DNA of 64,000 bases from a virus (IMGVR_UViG_3300014204_005796:42710-106709), one strand, 5' to 3'; counted from the stretch's first letter, positions 1,623-58,022 are shown. Notes: generated by a model from the letters alone, not told the origin. A program made the numbers and translations.

Positions 1623-3557
1623 ATGGAAGCTATTAAACTCACAAATAACAGAACAATAGCAGATAATTTGGTAGAGCGTAAGACAGGTACTCTATATGAT
1701 ACTTACTATAAGGCGCTTGAAAACCTGGCAAAAGTATACGTAGATGGCATCGTTGAAAATGTACTAAATAATAGTTTTATTTTTACGTCAGATTCGGCAG
1801 GATTAAAACGCTGGCAGGCGTACTACGAGCAAAAACCTTTTGACATGACATGGACACAGTTTCGTAGTTTGTTATTCTTACTTAATGAGGCAACCAGGGA
1901 AGGCCCCACAGTTACGAACATACAAAACATCCTAAAGTTTTTTGATGCAACAGCTACATTTTCACAGGTAACTACCCGGCATATATTTTATGGAACACCG
2001 GGGTACGTAATCGCTACACTCACGAAAGGGGACGATCTTATAACAACAGACTTTGACTGGCTGGCAGTCCCAAACTATAATCTACTAAGCAACTCACACA
2101 TATGGTATACTTCCGGTGGTGTAAACACACGCTTCAATGAAGGAACCGACTACAGTCTGGTATTGCAAGAAGACGGCGGAAAGGTACAAGCGGTTGTCAC
2201 GTGGATCACAGGTACCCCTCCGACAGACGGAGAGTCCTATGATCTTTTATTCAAGGACGACAGTATCGACCACGACGACCCACAGTCTTTATTTTACAAT
2301 CATAACTCAGGAACGTTTCCCGAAGAGGAAGCCTACATATATACAGAAGACTCATCTTTGCCAAAAGTAAATGAGTTTTTTGTGACAACAGACTCCACAG
2401 TTATTTATGAGTCTTCCGCATTAGTAATTCCTAAAGTCTCATTTAGGTATATGCTACAGGCGCTTTTAAATAAGATACTACCGGCCAATATAGTCTTTTT
2501 GCTGCGTTTTATGGATGCGGCATCTATTCTATACAGAAAGGACCAGGGGCCCGACCCGGTAACGCAGCCACGCCAGCTCATAATTTATGAACCTGCGTAT
2601 GGACAAATCCGCAGCTATAATCTTATGGTCGCCGGATATGAGACAGCACAGCTTAGGGACGCCATGCGCGTAGATGAGAATGATTTTTTACTGATTCTCC
2701 AGCCGCCACCGCCCTCGCGAAAACAGCATATTGTTCGTTACGACACAGCTACAAAAATTACCACTGAAGCGGTTACCAATGTGTTTTCTGTAGACCAGGC
2801 AGGTACAGCCTTTACCAGGGTAGACCTTAATACACTTATATTTCCGTCCATAGGATCGTTTGACCCTTACTTTAGCGTTTACGACGTAAAAACCGGGGGC
2901 AGCACCACCTATTACAACGCCTATGGCGCAACCGCCCTCTCTAACCCGGCGGTAGCAACATCTCCGGTATTTACGACAGGTTTTGATTTTCTCTGGGATA
3001 TGAAGGCAGACAACAATGGACATGCTTACTTTATTGTGCGTAATATACAGACTAATGACTGGTATATTCGGGTTTTACACGTAATAACTAATACATTAGT
3101 TTACGAAGTAAATTTAGGACCCTTAGCAGGTCAGCCAAATTCATTTTCTCCACTTAGTACTAGTAAGTACGTATTCTTTCATAACAAAACAATTAATGGG
3201 TCTGGCGACGTAGTATTTGTAGACGCAACTATACCCTCGGTGGTTAGCACAACATTTGACATTATAAATGCTTCTGTAATTGCTATAAACGATGAATTAG
3301 TTGTGTCCACAAAGAACGACGGTCCTGACGTAGAAATCTACACGTCAGCGTTCGGAGAGGTGCCAACACTCCTTATGATCGTACCTAATATGCCGGCTTC
3401 GTCTGTATACCTGCATGAGAACGACTTGGTTTTAGTCAATAATTATAAAAGCGTGGCTATAGTGTTAAACTTTGTTACACTATTAGGGGCTGCCCCAGTT
3501 CTTAGCTACCACGTGGATTCAAACAGTCAATTTTTATACCCAGTTGACGTATACTAA
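1623..3557 (+). CDS. Baseplate/tail-associated structural protein (gpI-like N-terminus, beta-rich C-terminus)
   Basis: Directly follows baseplate J. GPTVTNIQNIL and LLNKILPANI resemble wedge/tail protein I motifs; the C-terminus is beta-rich. Confidence 0.55.
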   Translation: MEAIKLTNNRTIADNLVERKTGTLYDTYYKALENLAKVYVDGIVENVLNNSFIFTSDSAGLKRWQAYYEQKPFDMTWTQFRSLLFLLNEATREGPTVTNIQNILKFFDATATFSQVTTRHIFYGTPGYVIATLTKGDDLITTDFDWLAVPNYNLLSNSHIWYTSGGVNTRFNEGTDYSLVLQEDGGKVQAVVTWITGTPPTDGESYDLLFKDDSIDHDDPQSLFYNHNSGTFPEEEAYIYTEDSSLPKVNEFFVTTDSTVIYESSALVIPKVSFRYMLQALLNKILPANIVFLLRFMDAASILYRKDQGPDPVTQPRQLIIYEPAYGQIRSYNLMVAGYETAQLRDAMRVDENDFLLILQPPPPSRKQHIVRYDTATKITTEAVTNVFSVDQAGTAFTRVDLNTLIFPSIGSFDPYFSVYDVKTGGSTTYYNAYGATALSNPAVATSPVFTTGFDFLWDMKADNNGHAYFIVRNIQTNDWYIRVLHVITNTLVYEVNLGPLAGQPNSFSPLSTSKYVFFHNKTINGSGDVVFVDATIPSVVSTTFDIINASVIAINDELVVSTKNDGPDVEIYTSAFGEVPTLLMIVPNMPASSVYLHENDLVLVNNYKSVAIVLNFVTLLGAAPVLSYHVDSNSQFLYPVDVY

Positions 3558-3569
3558 AAGGAGGATGGA

Positions 3570-6500
3570 ATGAACCTTAATCCATTCAATTTGTTTAAAA
3601 AGAAGTCAGTTGACGCGCCGGCGCTTACTCCGGAAGAAATAAGAGCTGGCATTACACAGCAACTGCAGCGCCTAATGGCAGATCCTAATTTGCTGGAACG
3701 CCTTGATGTTAATACTTCCATGCCCCCGGAAGTCCAGTCAGAACATCTGGTAAACGCTGAGTGGATAAATACATACCTAAATACTGAAGGTATGGCCATA
3801 GTAAGTGAATTACAAAAAAACTTTGAGACCTTGGACCCATCAAGGGCTCAAACAAGTTTATCCAAATTTTTAGACCCATCAAACCAGGTTATTATAGATG
3901 CCATACACAAGATATACCCAACATATAAGAACTTTGTTATTGAAATGGCACAACGCCGGGACAAGGCCCCAAAAGCCGCACCAGAAGCAGAAGTAGGACG
4001 CATATTTGAGCCCCTTATAAAAGCAACTTTTGAGCGCATTGTCGAAGCTGCCAGTGATTACTTACGTGATACTGAAAAGAGCAAAATGTTTGAAGGGCTT
4101 AACGACTTAGAAATTAAAGGTATCATAGAGTCATTTAAGTTTTCCATTGAATCAGATAAGTCTACAGTGCTTCCGGAAGCGTTAAGAAGTTTTTTAAAAA
4201 GCAATCCAGGGCTGCCAAAGGATAATGAAACTTTGTCTCGCGCGGCCGGTCCAGTCATATTTATGGGCACTTATGAAACGAAGCTTATTGATACGGCTAT
4301 TAGCTTAGTTGATAGTCAGGGCAAAGATATGAATACGCTCAAGGAAGAGTTTAAAACTAAGCTTGGTACGCTAAAGGATGAGCTCCAGAAGAAAGCTGGC
4401 GTGGATGAAGATAACATTTACTATATAAAAGATGGCGCAAATGTACTATTCACACCTATAGGAAAACAGACGTTCCTTAAGTCATGGGCCAGTCAGTCCG
4501 ACGGGTCACCACAGGCGGTGCTTAACTTATTTGTTGGTGCTGTAGCAAAAGCAAGCCCGGAGTCCGAACAGGCACATGATAACCAGATGGACGAAGCCAA
4601 CTTCCGAGGATTACTCGGTGATATGGTTACGCTGTCAAAAGCACAGAAAGAAGGGCATCAAGCTTCCTTTGGGACGGCTGCAGAGCCCTTACTCACATTT
4701 CTTATTAACGTCGCTATAGGCGCGCACCCGGACGTCCAAACATTTGATGTAACACGGCCTGGCGCGTCAGGGCGTGACACGTCTATCCAGCTCGCTATAG
4801 ACCATATGACTGCGCGTGGTCTATTTCCTGTAATTAAACCGGATTTAAAATCAGAGCGTTGGACCCTGACAATTAATCCGGGTCCGGTTATTACAGCCAC
4901 GAAACTATTTGTTGGGTCACTTAGCACAGACCTTAAGGATTTTTTAATGGTACTTGCAGCGAGACCAAATCCTGACAGCGCTTTTCAGGTAGCTCTGGGT
5001 GGGATTCTTAAAAATATCATAACCTCATTTGATGCATATGCACTTAAGCATCTTGAGACCCTGGACATACAGAGCCTGGCTAATGGCTATATGGGTAAGA
5101 TTGTTGATCAGGTTTCAAAAGCTTTAGACGGTGTTGGAGGAGCTCCTGCAGGATCAGCCCCGGCGCGGGCGCAAGAACCCACAGCGCCTGTAACTAAAGT
5201 TCCACCCCCGCCTCCCGCTACTGCCGTGGCCTACTCACTTAGAAGTATACTAAAGACGGCAAAGGAAGCGGAAGCACAAGGTCTTGTAAGCGAAATTATG
5301 CGTCGTTACCATGGGATACCTGTTAAGGAACCCGTTGAAGCTTATATTACGGAGCGCAACATTCCGCCTTTTGGCGTAACGGTATATGAAATAGAAATAG
5401 AAGGGGCATATTTAAGGAACTTGCCGCAGGTCCAGCTCCAAGATATGAACAAAGTACTGACAGGTGAAGCTCTTGGCCAGTACCCGGAGATAAAAAAGGG
5501 AGTTCGTGTGGTACATTCGAGTTTTACTTATGTGTCAGGCAGGCCTGCCTATATAGTTGTCATAGCTGTAGGTGAGCCAACACCCGACGCTGATGCGTCC
5601 CAAGTTAAAGACCCTATAGTACAAAAACTTCTGTCCAGTAAGAATGTAGAAGAGTCATTAGAAGATCCTAATAAGGTCAGGGAGCTTGCCCAGCAGGTAG
5701 CGGCTCAAGGTGGATTACGTCATCTGGATAAAGACGCTCTGCGCTCCAAGCTGGAAGCTTTGGAAAACTCCAGCATGCAGGACGGCGCTGACAAAGAAGC
5801 TATAGGTAAGCAAATTCAACGGCTGCAAAAACAGATAGCACAGCCGGACTTACAACAGGACCTAGGCATATCTACAGAGGAAATTTATGACAAAACTCCT
5901 GAGGAGCTGCGCGAAGTTGTTCAAAAATACGTAAGCAACTTTTCAAAAACAAACTCCTATACAGTAGACTACGCAGGACCTCGTACAGTTAACAGAACCC
6001 CCTTGCAAGACAAAATATCGGCTGATTTAGCAAGTACTATACATGCGCTTAAGGACCGCACAGGTTTGACACGTGGAGAAGCTTCCCTGCCACCGGAATT
6101 ACAGCTGGCCGTGCTTAATACCCTGTCAGGCGTGCAGAAGGAGCTATCTGCTGCAGGTGTTCCCGCTTTGGGAGCACAGGACGCCAACCAGACTATGAGT
6201 AATCTGACGCAGGCGGCACTCAGCGGTGACATAAAGAGCATGTCCTATGTACATGATCAGTTAAAAACATACCTCTCTCAGCTGGATAACTTTCTAAAGG
6301 AACGCGGAGGAAAGACAGAGTCCCCTCTGATTAAAAAGATTATGGACCAGTATGTCATACCCTTGGCTGAAAAATTCACGGAGCAGCTTGGTGGACCTAA
6401 AGATATCAATAGAACTATGCTTTTAATAGGTAAACTAGAGAATTATTTGGACGACCTTAACGCCGGTACGTACAAAGACCAAGCAGTGGCCCCTATTGCG

Positions 6501-9283: not shown

Positions 9284-10519
9284 TCACCCCTTTATGACCG
9301 CCACGGTCTTGAGTTTAGTCACAGGTTCAACAAGCTCTTCCTGATCCTTCATGACTACGTCGATGTCTTTATATGCACCTTTACATTCCTCAGCCACGTC
9401 TTCCATCTTACTTTTACCAATGGTTACATTGAGCGTCTTAAGTTCCTCAATCACAGACTGCACGGTGAAGGACTGTTTCGCCTTGGTCCTGGACATAGCC
9501 CGGCCAGCCCCGTGGGAGCATGACATAAAGCTTTCCGGATTTCCTTTGCCGCGTACTATATAGGAGAAGGAACCCATAGCGCCGGGTATGATCCCGAGCT
9601 CACCTTCGCGCACACGTATGGCCCCTTTACGGTGAACCCACACGTTCTCCCCAAAGTGATTCTCTAACGCAGCATAGTTGTGATGGGCGTTAATCTCCGT
9701 ATCAAACTTAACACCCGGAAATTCCCCTCCGACAAGGAGTTTGGCCATCTTCATCATTTCTGCCCTGTTCTGCATGGCAAACTTCTGCGCAAACATCATC
9801 CAGCGTATGTACGCTGCACCTTCAATGGCATCGGTAGGAAGGAACGCCAGCTGTGATCCTTTTGGAACTTCAGAATGCCACCGTGTATTGAGACGTTCGG
9901 CTTCCTTATTATAAAAATCGCATATTACCTTACCCACATTCCTGGAGCCTGAGTGTATCATTATGGCAAGCAGGCCCTGTTCATCTTCCTGGAGTTCAAT
10001 GAAATGGTTGCCACCACCCAGAGTACCCAGCTGCTTGTGCGCCTCAGGAAACACCCTGTCCCACAGAGCTGAATCCATGATGCTGTTTGCCAAAAGAAAC
10101 GTCTCAAGGCTCTTATACTCTGCGAGTACGTCAGGATCAAACGCGATAGGCATAGCGCGGTGCTGAAAACCAGTAGGTATGTTACGCATGAGCTGGCCTA
10201 CAAGCTTCTGCGTCATAGTGCCATTAGGCGTCTCCGCCTTAAGTTCCTTGACTGGAATATCCGTGTGTACATAAACCATTCCGCATCCAATATCTACGCC
10301 AACCATATTTGGACTTATGGCACCCTTGAGTGCCGCGACTCCACCCACAGGCATACCATGTCCCATGTGACAGTCCGGCATAAGCGCCACGTGCTTGAAC
10401 AGATATGGAAGGTTAGATACGGCCTCGGCCTGCAGTAAGCATGACGGTTCAATAGAGTCCGGGTTGATCCAGGCCTTAATAGGTTTCTTCTGTACTGTCC
10501 CATTAAATATTACATTCAT
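9284..10519 (-). CDS. rtcB: RtcB family RNA ligase
   Basis: Motifs PDCH, VGVDIGCG, GTLGGGNHFIE, HSGSR, HHNYA, VHRKGA, IIPGAMG, SHGAGR, AYKDI. Confidence 0.97.
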   Translation of the reverse strand: MNVIFNGTVQKKPIKAWINPDSIEPSCLLQAEAVSNLPYLFKHVALMPDCHMGHGMPVGGVAALKGAISPNMVGVDIGCGMVYVHTDIPVKELKAETPNGTMTQKLVGQLMRNIPTGFQHRAMPIAFDPDVLAEYKSLETFLLANSIMDSALWDRVFPEAHKQLGTLGGGNHFIELQEDEQGLLAIMIHSGSRNVGKVICDFYNKEAERLNTRWHSEVPKGSQLAFLPTDAIEGAAYIRWMMFAQKFAMQNRAEMMKMAKLLVGGEFPGVKFDTEINAHHNYAALENHFGENVWVHRKGAIRVREGELGIIPGAMGSFSYIVRGKGNPESFMSCSHGAGRAMSRTKAKQSFTVQSVIEELKTLNVTIGKSKMEDVAEECKGAYKDIDVVMKDQEELVEPVTKLKTVAVIKG

Positions 10520-54227: not shown

Positions 54228-54689
54228 TTACTTCGAGACTATGATAAATCTTTCGTCCAAAAGACCGGCCAGTATTGGCTTCACTTCAGACTCCCAGTTC
54301 AGGCCGCCGTTGCCACAGCCAGGGCGAGGAATCACTATGGATTTCCACTTCTTTTTATTCTCCGGCAGGTTCGCGAGATTGACAAGCTGCTTCATTGAGT
54401 TCTCAATAAGCACCTTGTCCGCCTTAAGATAGTACTGTGACTTTACCGGAAGGGTTCCGACCTGGAACTCTTCAAGGTACATGACCTGGTTGCCATACTT
54501 ACGCACAGCCTGGCCCAACACCACGTGAATACCCGGGAATTTATCGTACGCTTCTTTCGCGCACCCCTTTCCCATTACTAAGTCGTTGTTCTGTTTCAGG
54601 GTGCCATTGGTCGTTATAAAAACCGCGGTCCCCGGCTGCTCATGGTAACTCCACAAATCAGCCTTTGCTTCTTTGAATTTTACGTCCAT
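54228..54689 (-). CDS. Macrodomain (ADP-ribose-binding/hydrolase, DarG-like) protein
   Basis: DLW, TTNG, VMGKGCA, LPVK, PRPGCGNGGLNW. Confidence 0.85.
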   Translation of the reverse strand: MDVKFKEAKADLWSYHEQPGTAVFITTNGTLKQNNDLVMGKGCAKEAYDKFPGIHVVLGQAVRKYGNQVMYLEEFQVGTLPVKSQYYLKADKVLIENSMKQLVNLANLPENKKKWKSIVIPRPGCGNGGLNWESEVKPILAGLLDERFIIVSK

Positions 54690-54799
54690 ATTACGCCTCC
54701 TTTACTTGCCAGCCGAATTTTAATGCCAATTGAAAAATAATCTCGTGCGTTAAATCCAATTCCTGACCGAAATACATTTCTGCCATATCACGCTGCCTT

Positions 54800-55288
54800 T
54801 CAGTAGAGAGTGTCTATCCGAATCGGTTTGTAATCTGTTTGTTCAACAGACACATTAACATACGAAGCACTATCCATCTTTTTGTCATGGATGTGTCCGT
54901 GAATGTTCTTATAAGGCATTTTGTCATTTAGAAACACAATGTCATGTGATAGAATGTAAAATTTGTTATAGATGATTGGATATTCAAAGACTCGATGGAA
55001 GCCAACGTCAAGCCAATATTGGATGGACTTCTTACGGTCGTGGTTACCAAGCACCAGGATCTTATGTCCGGGAAGATTGGTAATTACGTTTTTAAGCCTC
55101 TCTTTGGGGTACGCCCCGCTTAGAGCCACGTCTCCAAGGTTGATAATAGTGTCATTGCCCCGGACGGTATTCCGCCAATTCTTAAGTATCAGCTTGTCCA
55201 TTTCCTCCGCAGTCGCGAAGGGCCGGTTGCAATACTTAATTATGTTTGCGTGCCCGAGATGCAGGTCGGACCAAATGTAAGCTGCCAT
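54800..55288 (-). CDS. Calcineurin-like metallophosphoesterase
   Basis: SDLH, LGD, GNHD, SH, HGHIH. Confidence 0.9.
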   Translation of the reverse strand: MAAYIWSDLHLGHANIIKYCNRPFATAEEMDKLILKNWRNTVRGNDTIINLGDVALSGAYPKERLKNVITNLPGHKILVLGNHDRKKSIQYWLDVGFHRVFEYPIIYNKFYILSHDIVFLNDKMPYKNIHGHIHDKKMDSASYVNVSVEQTDYKPIRIDTLY

Positions 55289-56250: not shown

Positions 56251-56402
56251 TATGCCACCGCCCCGGTAGAAAATATACTATTATAGTATGACTCATGCTC
56301 TACTTCATTGCCAGCGTTCTGCTCGTATAAATCCAGCGCTTCATCCACGGTAAGTACGTCCCAACATTCTGCTATTGTATTACACCACAGTATATCCCAC
56401 AT
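56250..56402 (-). CDS. 50-aa acidic protein downstream of tRNA-Cys
   Basis: TGAAAGGAGA SD directly after the CCA. Confidence 0.6.
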   Translation of the reverse strand: MWDILWCNTIAECWDVLTVDEALDLYEQNAGNEVEHESYYNSIFSTGAVA

Positions 56403-56420
56403 AAATTCTCCTTTCAAATT

Positions 56421-56495
56421 TGGAGAGCGAAGCTGGATTTGCACCAAGCCTACTCGGTTTTGCAGACCGACACCTAACTACTCGGTCATTCGCTC
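56421..56495 (-). tRNA. tRNA-Cys(GCA)
   Basis: TCGGT-CTGCAAA-ACCGA; U73; CCA. Confidence 0.92.
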
Positions 56496-56499
56496 TATC

Positions 56500-56538
56500 T
56501 GGCTGCTGGGGGTGGGGTCGAACCACCATAGCCAGCGT
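56500..56538 (-). pseudogene. 3' fragment of a disrupted tRNA (Gln-like)
   Basis: AC-GCTGG-CTAT-GGTGG-TTCGACC-CCACC-CCCAGCA-G-CCA. Confidence 0.8.
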
Positions 56539-56545
56539 ATTATTC

Positions 56546-56810
56546 TTAATCAACTATCTTATATTCAAAACATTCCAAAAATTTAGATTTGGATATTACG
56601 AAGCTTTCATTACAGGGTCCTCGACGTATGTTTCCAAAATATTTTTTATGGTCGGCGTCGCTTAAACATACATGGTACAAACGTCCAGCCGCACTCGTTA
56701 AAATACCATCGAGCGGTATTATGGTTCCTTTCAGACACCATACTTGACCTTCATTATCACCCTGGCATACGTCTCGAACACATACATACATAACGTTTTT
56801 TCTGCTCCAT
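56546..56810 (-). pseudogene. Frameshifted small gene with (TATG)3 tract
   Basis: The SD-linked ATG at 56810 is out of frame with the 81-aa ORF; removing one TATG restores MEQKKRYVCVRDVC... Confidence 0.6.
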
Positions 56811-56828
56811 AAATTCTCCTTTCAAATT

Positions 56829-56904
56829 TGGTTCCGGAAGTAGGAGTCGGACCTACAATCTCCAGGGCCAGAACCTGGCGTGTTACCAATTACACTATTC
56901 CGGA
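56829..56904 (-). tRNA. tRNA-Gln(CTG)
   Basis: CCAGG-TTCTGGC-CCTGG; T1-A72; CCA; 5' end overlaps the HNH stop codon. Confidence 0.92.
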
Positions 56905-57623
56905 ATATTTCCGCGCCCGGTCTTAAGCCACTTATGCACCGCTACGTCGCTTACGCCGTATTTTCTTCCTGTGGCGCTGTATCCGTTCGCGGACACTTCT
57001 GATCTAAGACGCAACAATGAAGACCTATTTATAACCTTTCTGCGCATTTTATTAGCACAACTGTAGCATATACCCAATTTTCCCTTTCCGGCTATCTCTG
57101 TCTTGCATCGCGTACAAAAATGTTTGGGTCGCGGCTGCTGGTGTACGTTACGCCCGCTAAATGTTTCTGTTTGTGAGTGACAATTTGGACATAGCATTTT
57201 TAAATTCTCTAGTCTATTATCCATATTGTCACCGTTTACGTGATCCACTTGAAGTACTAAAACTTTCCCGTTCCACGTACTATCCTGGCCGCACATGGCA
57301 CATTTATGCATGTTTACACCACGACGTTGTAGTCGTACTTTTAATTGTGCGCCACTAATCTTTCGTCCTTTAACAAAGAATTCACTATCAGGTAACGGTG
57401 CCCGAATGCCCATAAGTACTGCGGCCTGCAACTTAAAGTTATTAGCACTTACCTGTTTGTACAATCCCAATTTCTGCAAACGTTCCTTAAGCCCGGTATA
57501 GGCCGTACCGGCCACACGCAGGCCTAGCGCCATAATTATTTTCTGCGACGTCTGCTCACGCAAAACCACGTCCGTAAACTCTGCATCTGTCAAAGACCAA
57601 ATCTTAGATCTTTTATGTCTCAT
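56895..57623 (-). CDS. HNH homing endonuclease
   Basis: CAMCG...LQVDHVNGDNMDNRLENLKMLCPNCH; C-terminal Zn ribbon and HTH. Confidence 0.92.
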   Translation of the reverse strand: MRHKRSKIWSLTDAEFTDVVLREQTSQKIIMALGLRVAGTAYTGLKERLQKLGLYKQVSANNFKLQAAVLMGIRAPLPDSEFFVKGRKISGAQLKVRLQRRGVNMHKCAMCGQDSTWNGKVLVLQVDHVNGDNMDNRLENLKMLCPNCHSQTETFSGRNVHQQPRPKHFCTRCKTEIAGKGKLGICYSCANKMRRKVINRSSLLRLRSEVSANGYSATGRKYGVSDVAVHKWLKTGRGNIPE

Positions 57624-57624
57624 C

Positions 57625-57686
57625 GTATAACCTCCGAACCTTCATTAGGTTATACCAAGTATAGCACCTACCAGTTAGACTGCCAA
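57625..57686 (-). promoter_or_regulatory. Promoter plus SD-sequestering hairpin for the HNH gene
   Basis: TTGGCA-N17(TG)-TATACT at 57658-57686; 9-bp stem GTATAACCT/AGGTTATAC covering GGAGG. Confidence 0.6.
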
Positions 57687-57701
57687 TTCCTCAACCCAGC
57701 A
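57678..57701 (-). pseudogene. 5' fragment of the disrupted tRNA
   Basis: TGCTGGG-TT-GAGG-AATTGGCA; TGCTGGG pairs 7/7 with CCCAGCA at 56504-56510. Confidence 0.75.
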
Positions 57702-57704
57702 ACA

Positions 57705-58022
57705 TTACAACACCTTAGGCTTGTTTAAGCAGCATCTCTGAATGCGCTTCGCTTCGTCTAAGTATATCTGGGGATTTTTAAATGGTATGAACTTGAACCC
57801 CCGTTTCTTTAGCAGCCTGTACATTTCCATATTCTCATTATAAGCTATCTGCGCATTCTCAAGGCTGCCAAAAGAGTCACAAAAGTAATAACCTGGTCCG
57901 GATGAGTCACCCATTACGTAGCAATCATACGGGTCGCACGCTTTCAAAGCGTCGATAAAAACTACTGTGCATACTGCTAAGAGGATACCGAGCATGCTGA
58001 AGAGCTGTGTTCTTGTACGCAT
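57705..58022 (-). CDS. Membrane-anchored hypothetical protein
   Basis: N-terminal TM segment. Confidence 0.55.
   Translation of the reverse strand: MRTRTQLFSMLGILLAVCTVVFIDALKACDPYDCYVMGDSSGPGYYFCDSFGSLENAQIAYNENMEMYRLLKKRGFKFIPFKNPQIYLDEAKRIQRCCLNKPKVL

Follow-up and report, generated by a model that had tools for sequence, protein, structure and literature searches.

A Probable tRNA Gene Relic Split at Its Anticodon Loop by an HNH Endonuclease Cassette in a Phage tRNA Cluster

RESULTS

Two tRNA Halves That Fit One Cloverleaf

The stretch of DNA analyzed here, which we call the window, covers the right-hand 64 kb of a phage contig of 106.7 kb in IMG/VR (IMGVR_UViG_3300014204_005796) that is estimated to be 67% complete. 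Within its cluster of transfer RNA (tRNA) genes lie two parts of a tRNA gene, together termed tRNA-X, separated by 1,126 bp that hold an intact HNH homing endonuclease gene, an intact tRNA-Gln(CTG), and small open reading frames (ORFs). Coordinates of tRNA-X and of the insert are positions in the window, read on the minus strand. The 5′ part (57670–57701) comprises one acceptor strand, the D-arm, position 26, and the 5′ strand of the anticodon stem, in the order TGCTGGG, T8, T9, GAGG, AATTGGCAG, TCTA, A26, and CTGGT. The 3′ part (56500–56543) comprises seven nucleotides (nt) at the position of the loop, the 3′ strand of the anticodon stem, a 4-nt variable loop, the T-arm, the second acceptor strand, G73, and CCA (ATAATAC, GCTGG, CTAT, GGTGG/TTCGACC/CCACC, CCCAGCA, G73, CCA). 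The acceptor strands TGCTGGG and CCCAGCA form seven of seven Watson-Crick pairs, and CTGGT and GCTGG of the anticodon stem form five of five pairs, three of them G-U. Both strands of this stem are kept with the gap between them, and so the break falls within the anticodon loop.

An earlier reading made from the DNA alone (the sequence-only reading) had placed two tRNA parts with fully paired acceptor strands about 1.1 kb apart, and this stands at 57701–57670 and 56543–56500. It had also taken the 5′ part to include a D-loop. A14, G18, G19, and A21 are in register and U8 (T8) is present, but the D-stem is imperfect at 3/4 pairs. The 5′ half begins 3 nt past the stop codon of a 105-amino acid ORF (57705–58022, minus strand), a context that supports a real tRNA start; the tRNA-Arg(TCT) and tRNA-Gln genes of the cluster likewise abut or overlap the stop of the ORF upstream of them. 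On the other side, tRNA-Cys(GCA) (56421–56495, minus strand; ARAGORN and Rfam) starts 4 nt past the CCA of tRNA-X.

The split gene is called neither by ARAGORN, with its intron option on or off, nor by Rfam. Every combination of junctions was tried for an in silico deletion of the insert, and along one diagonal ARAGORN recognizes the product as a 76-nt tRNA at the default threshold. This call holds whatever mix of the flanking 7-mers fills the loop, and the four stems and conserved bases therefore suffice for it. With the 3′ half fixed and every position of the genome offered as the 5′ half, two other calls arise in 213 kb (both strands), and first-order Markov sequence gives 62 calls per 6 Mb. 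The chance rate is thus ∼0.01 per kb, or ∼0.012 for a same-strand partner within 1.2 kb upstream, and confirms that the two halves are real beyond chance.

A promoter-like site, TTGGCA-17-TGcTATACT (57658–57686, minus strand), spans the D-loop, its −35 element lying in the D-loop and its extended −10 element in the first bases of the insert. It matches the consensus at 10/12 positions with the TG, a consensus match only, and in style it is like two strong sites (61411 and 63324) that match at 11/12. The likeness to a D-loop could thus in part serve or reflect a promoter. Taken further, this site, the weak D-stem, and the two other chance partners in the genome would make the 3′ piece alone a tRNA relic and the 5′ half a chance match over a real promoter of the HNH gene. 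We regard this as improbable, given the rate of ∼0.012 at that distance and strand, the complete acceptor pairing, the presence of T8, A14, G18, G19, and A21 in register with the stem partner at the right spacing, and the start immediately after an ORF stop. It is further countered by a likeness by eye, TTGA[A/G]GAATTGG...[C/T]TGGT, to a tRNA of a related locus, L088, which has an HNH homologue in its anticodon loop.

The anticodon segment is missing, as the sequence-only reading had it. The loop bases are AGGTGCT on the 5′ side, without U33, and ATAATAC on the 3′ side, which would read AAU. There is no NUG anticodon in tRNA-X, the bases at the loop position being AAU or non-canonical, and neither flank holds a loop of the Gln (YU-NUG-R) or Asn (CU-GUU-AA) type.

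The Acceptor Type of tRNA-X

The identity of tRNA-X was examined with a gapped pattern that keeps its acceptor stem, T8, G73, and a canonical T-loop. In IMG/VR, an identical acceptor stem with G73 occurs in 16 tRNAs, 15 of them Asn(GTT) from about six lineages and one Gln, and among prokaryotes, with one genome per species, in 32 (24 Gln and 8 Asn). The 48 tRNAs together are 25 Gln and 23 Asn with no other type, and the acceptor stem therefore marks Gln or Asn. U1-A72, G73, and G10 are identity elements for the glutaminyl-tRNA synthetase of Escherichia coli; tRNA-X has all three, but carries C3-G70 where the E. coli tRNA has G3-C70. U1-A72, G2-C71, and G73, from which the sequence-only reading proposed the Gln type, are all present, but they fail to distinguish Gln from Asn, the same stem and G73 being shared almost equally by both.

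Beyond the acceptor stem, sequence identity fails to tell Gln from Asn. The 4-nt variable loop is that of most Gln and of no Asn sequences (alignment read by eye), and the D-loop AATTGGCA equals that of a phage tRNA-Gln in locus L063. These two features suggest that, within a Gln/Asn acceptor type, tRNA-X was more likely Gln. A comparison of the 3′ half with GenBank phages returned a weak likeness to the 3′ halves of tRNA-Met (E = 4), which is uninformative.

Contents of the Insert

Near its 5′ edge the insert has a 9-bp hairpin, GTATAACCT / AGGTTATAC (57625–57655, minus strand). Its 3′ arm takes in GGAGG, the ribosome-binding site of the HNH gene. The gene itself (56895–57623, minus strand) is intact and encodes 242 amino acids. 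The protein scores 21.7 bits against Pfam HNH (cut-off 21.4), aligns along its entire length to phrog_10822 (3.4e-42), and has lost none of the Cys/His/Asn residues that the family alignment shows as invariant. It is 31% identical to BF23 hegA/F-TflIV over 67% of its length (tblastn) and 41% identical over its full length to an Enterococcus phage hegA annotated as F-TflIV. BF23 hegA sits in the tRNA gene region after tRNA-Ile2, and the Enterococcus Schiekvirus hegA between tRNA-Asn and tRNA-Ser. The closest homologue (P0002) has 57% identity, and the gene occurs only once in the 106.7-kb contig. On these alignments the protein is an intact member of the F-TflIV/hegA family of phage tRNA clusters.

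The intact tRNA-Gln(CTG) (56829–56904, minus strand; ARAGORN, Rfam tRNA 65.4 bits) shares its first 10 nt with the last codons and the stop of the HNH gene. Its acceptor stem is TCCGGAA with A73, and both stem and anticodon arm differ from those of tRNA-X. It is followed by a 24-mer with a ribosome-binding site and ATG (56808–56831, minus strand), an exact repeat of 56400–56423 after tRNA-Cys; a further copy of 18–19 nt follows tRNA-Tyr. The identical 24-mers indicate that such segments recombine within the tRNA cluster.

Small ORFs occupy 56546–56810 (minus strand). The stereotyped ribosome-binding site leads only a 17-amino acid frame (56757–56810), which starts at the ATG at 56810. An 81-amino acid frame (56791–56546) starts 19 nt after it in another reading frame, without a ribosome-binding site and past an A6 run (56801–56796), and may be a decayed or frameshifted gene. 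Its product has no true homologue among 1.84 billion representatives, the matches being repeat-like and to long proteins only. Structured RNA was sought in the region of this ORF and in the HNH leader, and neither has extra folding stability; the ORF region folds no better than shuffled sequence (z = −1.3). The composition of the insert is that of its flanks. The sequence-only reading had likewise listed an HNH gene, a tRNA-Gln(CTG) overlapping its stop, and a small ORF between the halves.

Relatives of the HNH Gene and Their tRNA Neighbors

Alignment of HNH homologues retrieved 80 IMG/VR loci with related HNH genes (L numbers). In 73 of the 80 there are tRNA genes within 3.5 kb, nearly always on the HNH strand. 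Short forms of the protein (∼155 amino acids) lie 30–90 nt downstream of a tRNA-Leu(UAA) in 14 loci. For the long forms (210–260 amino acids), the type found in the window, tRNA-Gln is nearest in 14 of ∼50 neighbor slots, both figures being a by-eye tally of the locus table; tRNA-Gln accounts for 9% of the full tRNA set of those loci, and the binomial tail for the excess beside the long forms is 8e-5. In five long-form loci the tRNA-Gln starts −15 to +6 nt from the HNH stop, and over all related loci, ∼17 have the next tRNA within −15 to +8 nt of the HNH stop. An HNH gene followed by tRNA-Gln is thus a recurrent arrangement, and a module of an HNH gene with its own tRNA-Gln is plausible. The selfish cassette with its own tRNA-Gln put forward in the sequence-only reading gains from the intact HNH gene and from the link of this HNH form to tRNA-Gln in relatives, but no intact allele of the invaded gene was found.

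Two relatives have Gln genes on both sides of the HNH gene, L067 as Gln(UUG)-HNH-Gln(CUG), in which a single base distinguishes the two acceptor stems, and L083 as Gln-HNH-Gln. Such loci would permit the halves in the window to derive from two paralogous Gln-type tRNA genes flanking the HNH gene, each truncated separately, with the stems shared because the genes are paralogues. This origin seems to us quite unlikely, as it needs two independent deletions that both end at the anticodon loop and leave 7/7 acceptor and 5/5 anticodon stem matches, and an intact tRNA-Gln with a different stem already lies downstream of the HNH gene.

As a separate observation, L057 (G001:C1:1-2765) has a 187-amino acid frame with an HNH motif upstream of tRNA-Ala and tRNA-Asn, and the acceptor stem of this tRNA-Asn is the same as that of tRNA-X.

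Related loci were also scanned for split tRNAs, defined as orphan T-arm/acceptor pieces with a complementary 5′ partner 150–3000 nt upstream, a scan that recovers tRNA-X in the window. It gave 14 candidates on the HNH strand and one on the other. Inside three of them Rfam finds group I introns, with cores within the tRNAs at the Rfam gathering score (L089:4179-4407, 96 bits; L062:2374-2629, 70 bits; L079:3180-3371, 62 bits). A hidden Markov model (HMM) built from six phage tRNA-intron cores matches 13 related loci, among them L133, L078, L091, L095, L096, L126, L128, L108, and L124. The tRNAs with group I cores in the anticodon loop on these HNH-family contigs of IMG/VR include Leu-UAA, Arg-UCU, Asn, and others. 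We found no published description of tRNA group I introns in phages.

In three loci the intron mode of ARAGORN places an HNH ORF inside the tRNA intron. L088:3445-4517 is a tRNA(CUA) with a 996-nt intron and the HNH ORF at 3495-4310; L126:501-1359 is a tRNA-Leu(UAA); and L133:3372-4213 is of Leu type, which ARAGORN reads as “tta” where the sequence has UAA. In L088, R-like and S-like elements lie in the 167 nt after the ORF. The 5′ part of the L088 tRNA, TGGGGCA-TT-GAAG-AATTGGTTAG..TTGGT, resembles by eye that of tRNA-X, TGCTGGG-TT-GAGG-AATTGGCAG..CTGGT. The L088 tRNA has a U1-A72, Gln-like acceptor stem, and its spliced anticodon CUA is that of an amber suppressor. L064 and L115 also carry a tRNA(CTA), and it is possible that these genes reflect TAG recoding in the three phages.

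Within the HNH family, some genes thus lie inside tRNA introns (L088, L126, L133), others immediately downstream or upstream of intron-bearing tRNA-Leu genes (L079, L095, L096, L128), and those of the 14 loci noted above a short way downstream of a tRNA-Leu(UAA) that has no intron. These settings resemble stages by which a free-standing endonuclease gene might become associated with an intron. In L124, the HNH ORF (3498-4010) and a tRNA-Leu(UAA) that ARAGORN calls with a 679-nt intron (3325-4087) are on opposite strands, which would place that ORF antisense within the intron.

The Phage and the Search for an Intact Allele

The phage is myovirus-like, encoding terminase, portal, major head, and baseplate genes. 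ARAGORN calls nine tRNA genes, all on the minus strand in the last 9 kb of the window. The phage also encodes RtcB, a CCA-adding tRNA nucleotidyltransferase, a macro-domain protein, and a metallophosphoesterase, the last two beside the tRNA cluster; coordinates listed for the repair genes are window 9287–10519 (minus strand), genome 4630–6195 (L007), and window 54231–55288 (minus strand). This set likely serves tRNA repair against host anticodon nucleases.

Protein searches with the 105-amino acid ORF upstream of tRNA-X, ORF230, and the large terminase returned no relatives of the phage, and BLAST against GenBank phages gave distant HNH and AAA matches only. The 105-amino acid ORF has no Pfam or PHROG family and no relatives in profile and protein searches. 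Exact-pattern scans of IMG/VR and JGI metagenomes with the tRNA-X halves and the neighboring tRNA-Cys found no match, nor did a gapped pattern that keeps the TTGAGG start of tRNA-X in the metagenomes. Neither an intact, uninterrupted tRNA-X allele nor a close relative of the phage was found in the collections searched, and there was no relative in which presence or absence of the HNH gene could be compared.

Removal of the Insert from RNA

The sequence-only reading did not consider an intron, and relatives hold homologous HNH genes in group I introns at the same tRNA site. tRNA-X could accordingly be a live interrupted gene whose 1.1-kb insert is removed from the RNA, either by a very divergent or fragmented ribozyme or by cleavage followed by repair with the RtcB or RNA ligase of the phage. 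Its insert lies in the anticodon loop, the classical site of tRNA introns, where L088, L126, and L133 have their HNH ORFs in true group I introns. Immediately 5′ of the break is a U (T at 57670). At 56545, after ...ATTAAG and 8 nt ahead of the 3′ stem strand, stands a G, an arrangement similar to the ...GTAAG with which the introns of relatives end. RtcB and the CCA-adding enzyme are encoded by the phage.

A group I intron was sought in the window by four routes. The Rfam model RF00028 gives no match at E up to 10 on 4.2 kb or 1.2 kb; the core HMM gives E = 2.1 in the wrong place, at the start of the HNH gene, though it matched 13 related loci; a motif scan finds no R/S pair; and the intron mode of ARAGORN, which calls L088, L126, and L133, gives nothing in the window. 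Because the ORF-bearing intron of L088 likewise escapes Rfam, the negative for a ribozyme in the window rests mainly on the small HMM and on motif searches. Joining U(−1) at 57670 to the ωG at 56545 gives an 8-nt loop, AAUAAUAC, and not a 7-nt loop with U33. Trans-pairing of the insert ends amounts to −17.0 kcal/mol against −16.4 ± 3.4 kcal/mol for shuffles, and neither complementary flanks nor a bulge-helix-bulge motif occurs at the ends of the insert.

We consider a live interrupted gene unlikely. No R/S/P7 core was detected by Rfam, HMM, or motif scan, and the non-coding room is only 46 nt plus ∼10 nt unless the 81-amino acid ORF, whose region folds like shuffled sequence, is no gene. The U(−1)-ωG join leaves the wrong loop size, and no join yields a canonical Gln or Asn loop; bulge-helix-bulge and leader pairing are both lacking. 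Processing of the internal tRNA-Gln would moreover sever the precursor. RtcB requires 2′,3′-cyclic phosphate and 5′-OH ends, and RNase P and RNase Z make other ends.

DISCUSSION

The reading we favor, and hold to be reasonably probable, is that tRNA-X is a dead tRNA gene of Gln/Asn type, more likely Gln, that used to lie between the 105-amino acid ORF and tRNA-Cys and was split at its anticodon loop by a 1,126-bp homing endonuclease cassette. The cassette consists of the hairpin that would occlude the Shine-Dalgarno sequence, the F-TflIV-like HNH gene, tRNA-Gln(CUG) over the HNH stop, the stereotyped ribosome-binding site, and an orphan small ORF.

In this history, the HNH enzyme or an ancestor of it would cut Gln-type tRNA genes in or near the DNA of the anticodon loop. 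Repair of the broken tRNA-X with scant homology at the flanks may have let the cassette in; alternatively, the cassette may have arrived as a group I intron that carried the HNH gene, like that of L088, and whose 3′ ribozyme part was later replaced by the segment with tRNA-Gln, ribosome-binding site, and ORF. The loop bases of tRNA-X would have been lost during entry. The tRNA-Gln(CUG) of the cassette, which differs from tRNA-X in acceptor stem and anticodon arm, would then make up for the lost gene with a Gln tRNA that the enzyme would leave uncut.

Expression of the HNH gene is probably low. Its ribosome-binding site would be masked by the hairpin, and RNase P cleavage at the 5′ end of tRNA-Gln would take away its stop codon. 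For T4 segB, translational occlusion by a hairpin over the translation start and loss of the stop codon when the downstream tRNA is processed have both been proposed (PMC2330249). In the RNA, maturation of the internal tRNA-Gln by RNase P and at its 3′ end would also part the two halves of tRNA-X; because this severs the precursor, no mature tRNA-X would form.

Several points weigh against the history just given. The D-stem of the 5′ half is poor, with 3/4 pairs in one register and two wobble pairs in the other, the anticodon stem has its three G-U pairs, and the −35-like TTGGCA could account for part of the D-loop likeness. The probability of a chance pairing, ∼0.01–0.03, is good but not overwhelming. 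The insertion is deduced from one genome, with no intact allele or cassette-free relative found, and there are no recognizable loop bases on either side, though a clean insertion would leave them. The failure of Rfam on the L088 intron tells in the same direction. Finally, cleavage specificity, resistance of the cassette tRNA, and the fate of the RNA are all inferred steps.

Homing endonuclease genes are known in phage tRNA clusters, T4 SegB and T5 F-Tfl among them. One close likeness is to F-TflIV (hegA) of T5/BF23, a homologous protein in a tRNA cluster, on the same strand, with ORFs and tRNAs that abut or overlap. In T5/BF23 and most relatives, however, the HNH gene stands between complete tRNA genes, whereas in the window it stands between the halves of one. 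T4 SegB is likewise a homing endonuclease in a phage tRNA cluster that targets tRNA genes and moves with neighboring tRNA genes (PMC2330249), but its nuclease fold is GIY-YIG and not HNH. SegB has the T-loop as its recognition site and makes its cut close to the 3′ end of tRNA genes, and in its homing the recipient segment is replaced by homologous recombination, which leaves no split gene (PMC2330249).

The site of insertion is that of group I introns in tRNA anticodon loops, with HNH relatives inside such introns in L088, L126, and L133. The window differs in having neither a catalytic core nor a U(−1)/ωG pair that restores a 7-nt loop, and in having a whole tRNA gene inside the insert. Division of a host gene by a free-standing HNH gene also recalls other phage genes that have reportedly been split by homing endonuclease insertion, nrdA of Aeh1 by mobE and the T4 topoisomerase genes 39/60 by mobA. 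Those are said to be protein genes with halves that still work as subunits, whereas the cassette in the window splits a tRNA gene and carries a replacement tRNA gene. A search for a published report of a phage tRNA gene split by an endonuclease cassette found none.

The division into 5′ and 3′ halves near the anticodon loop further resembles the split tRNAs of Nanoarchaeum and the bulge-helix-bulge introns of Archaea. Archaeal split tRNAs need complementary leaders or a bulge-helix-bulge motif together with a splicing endonuclease; the window, in contrast, has no complementary pairing beside the halves. To our knowledge there is no way for a split tRNA to work in bacteria or phages. That the halves, released by RNase P and 3′ processing, pair through their acceptor and anticodon stems and are joined by the RNA repair enzymes of the phage or act as a two-piece tRNA strikes us as very improbable. 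If true, with split halves still in use, it would be the first split tRNA outside Archaea, and one made by a homing endonuclease.

We know of very few phage tRNA cluster homing endonucleases for which targets and routes of entry have been established. On the favored reading of a dead, invaded gene, both edges of that gene are kept, and the locus therefore suggests that this HNH lineage entered through the DNA of the anticodon loop in a Gln-type tRNA gene, with an invader that would carry a substitute tRNA-Gln. The settings of the HNH family, between tRNA genes, beside intron-bearing tRNAs, and inside tRNA group I introns, form a testable series that bears on how endonuclease genes, introns, and tRNA genes become linked in phages, and the locus offers a concrete substrate for cleavage assays.

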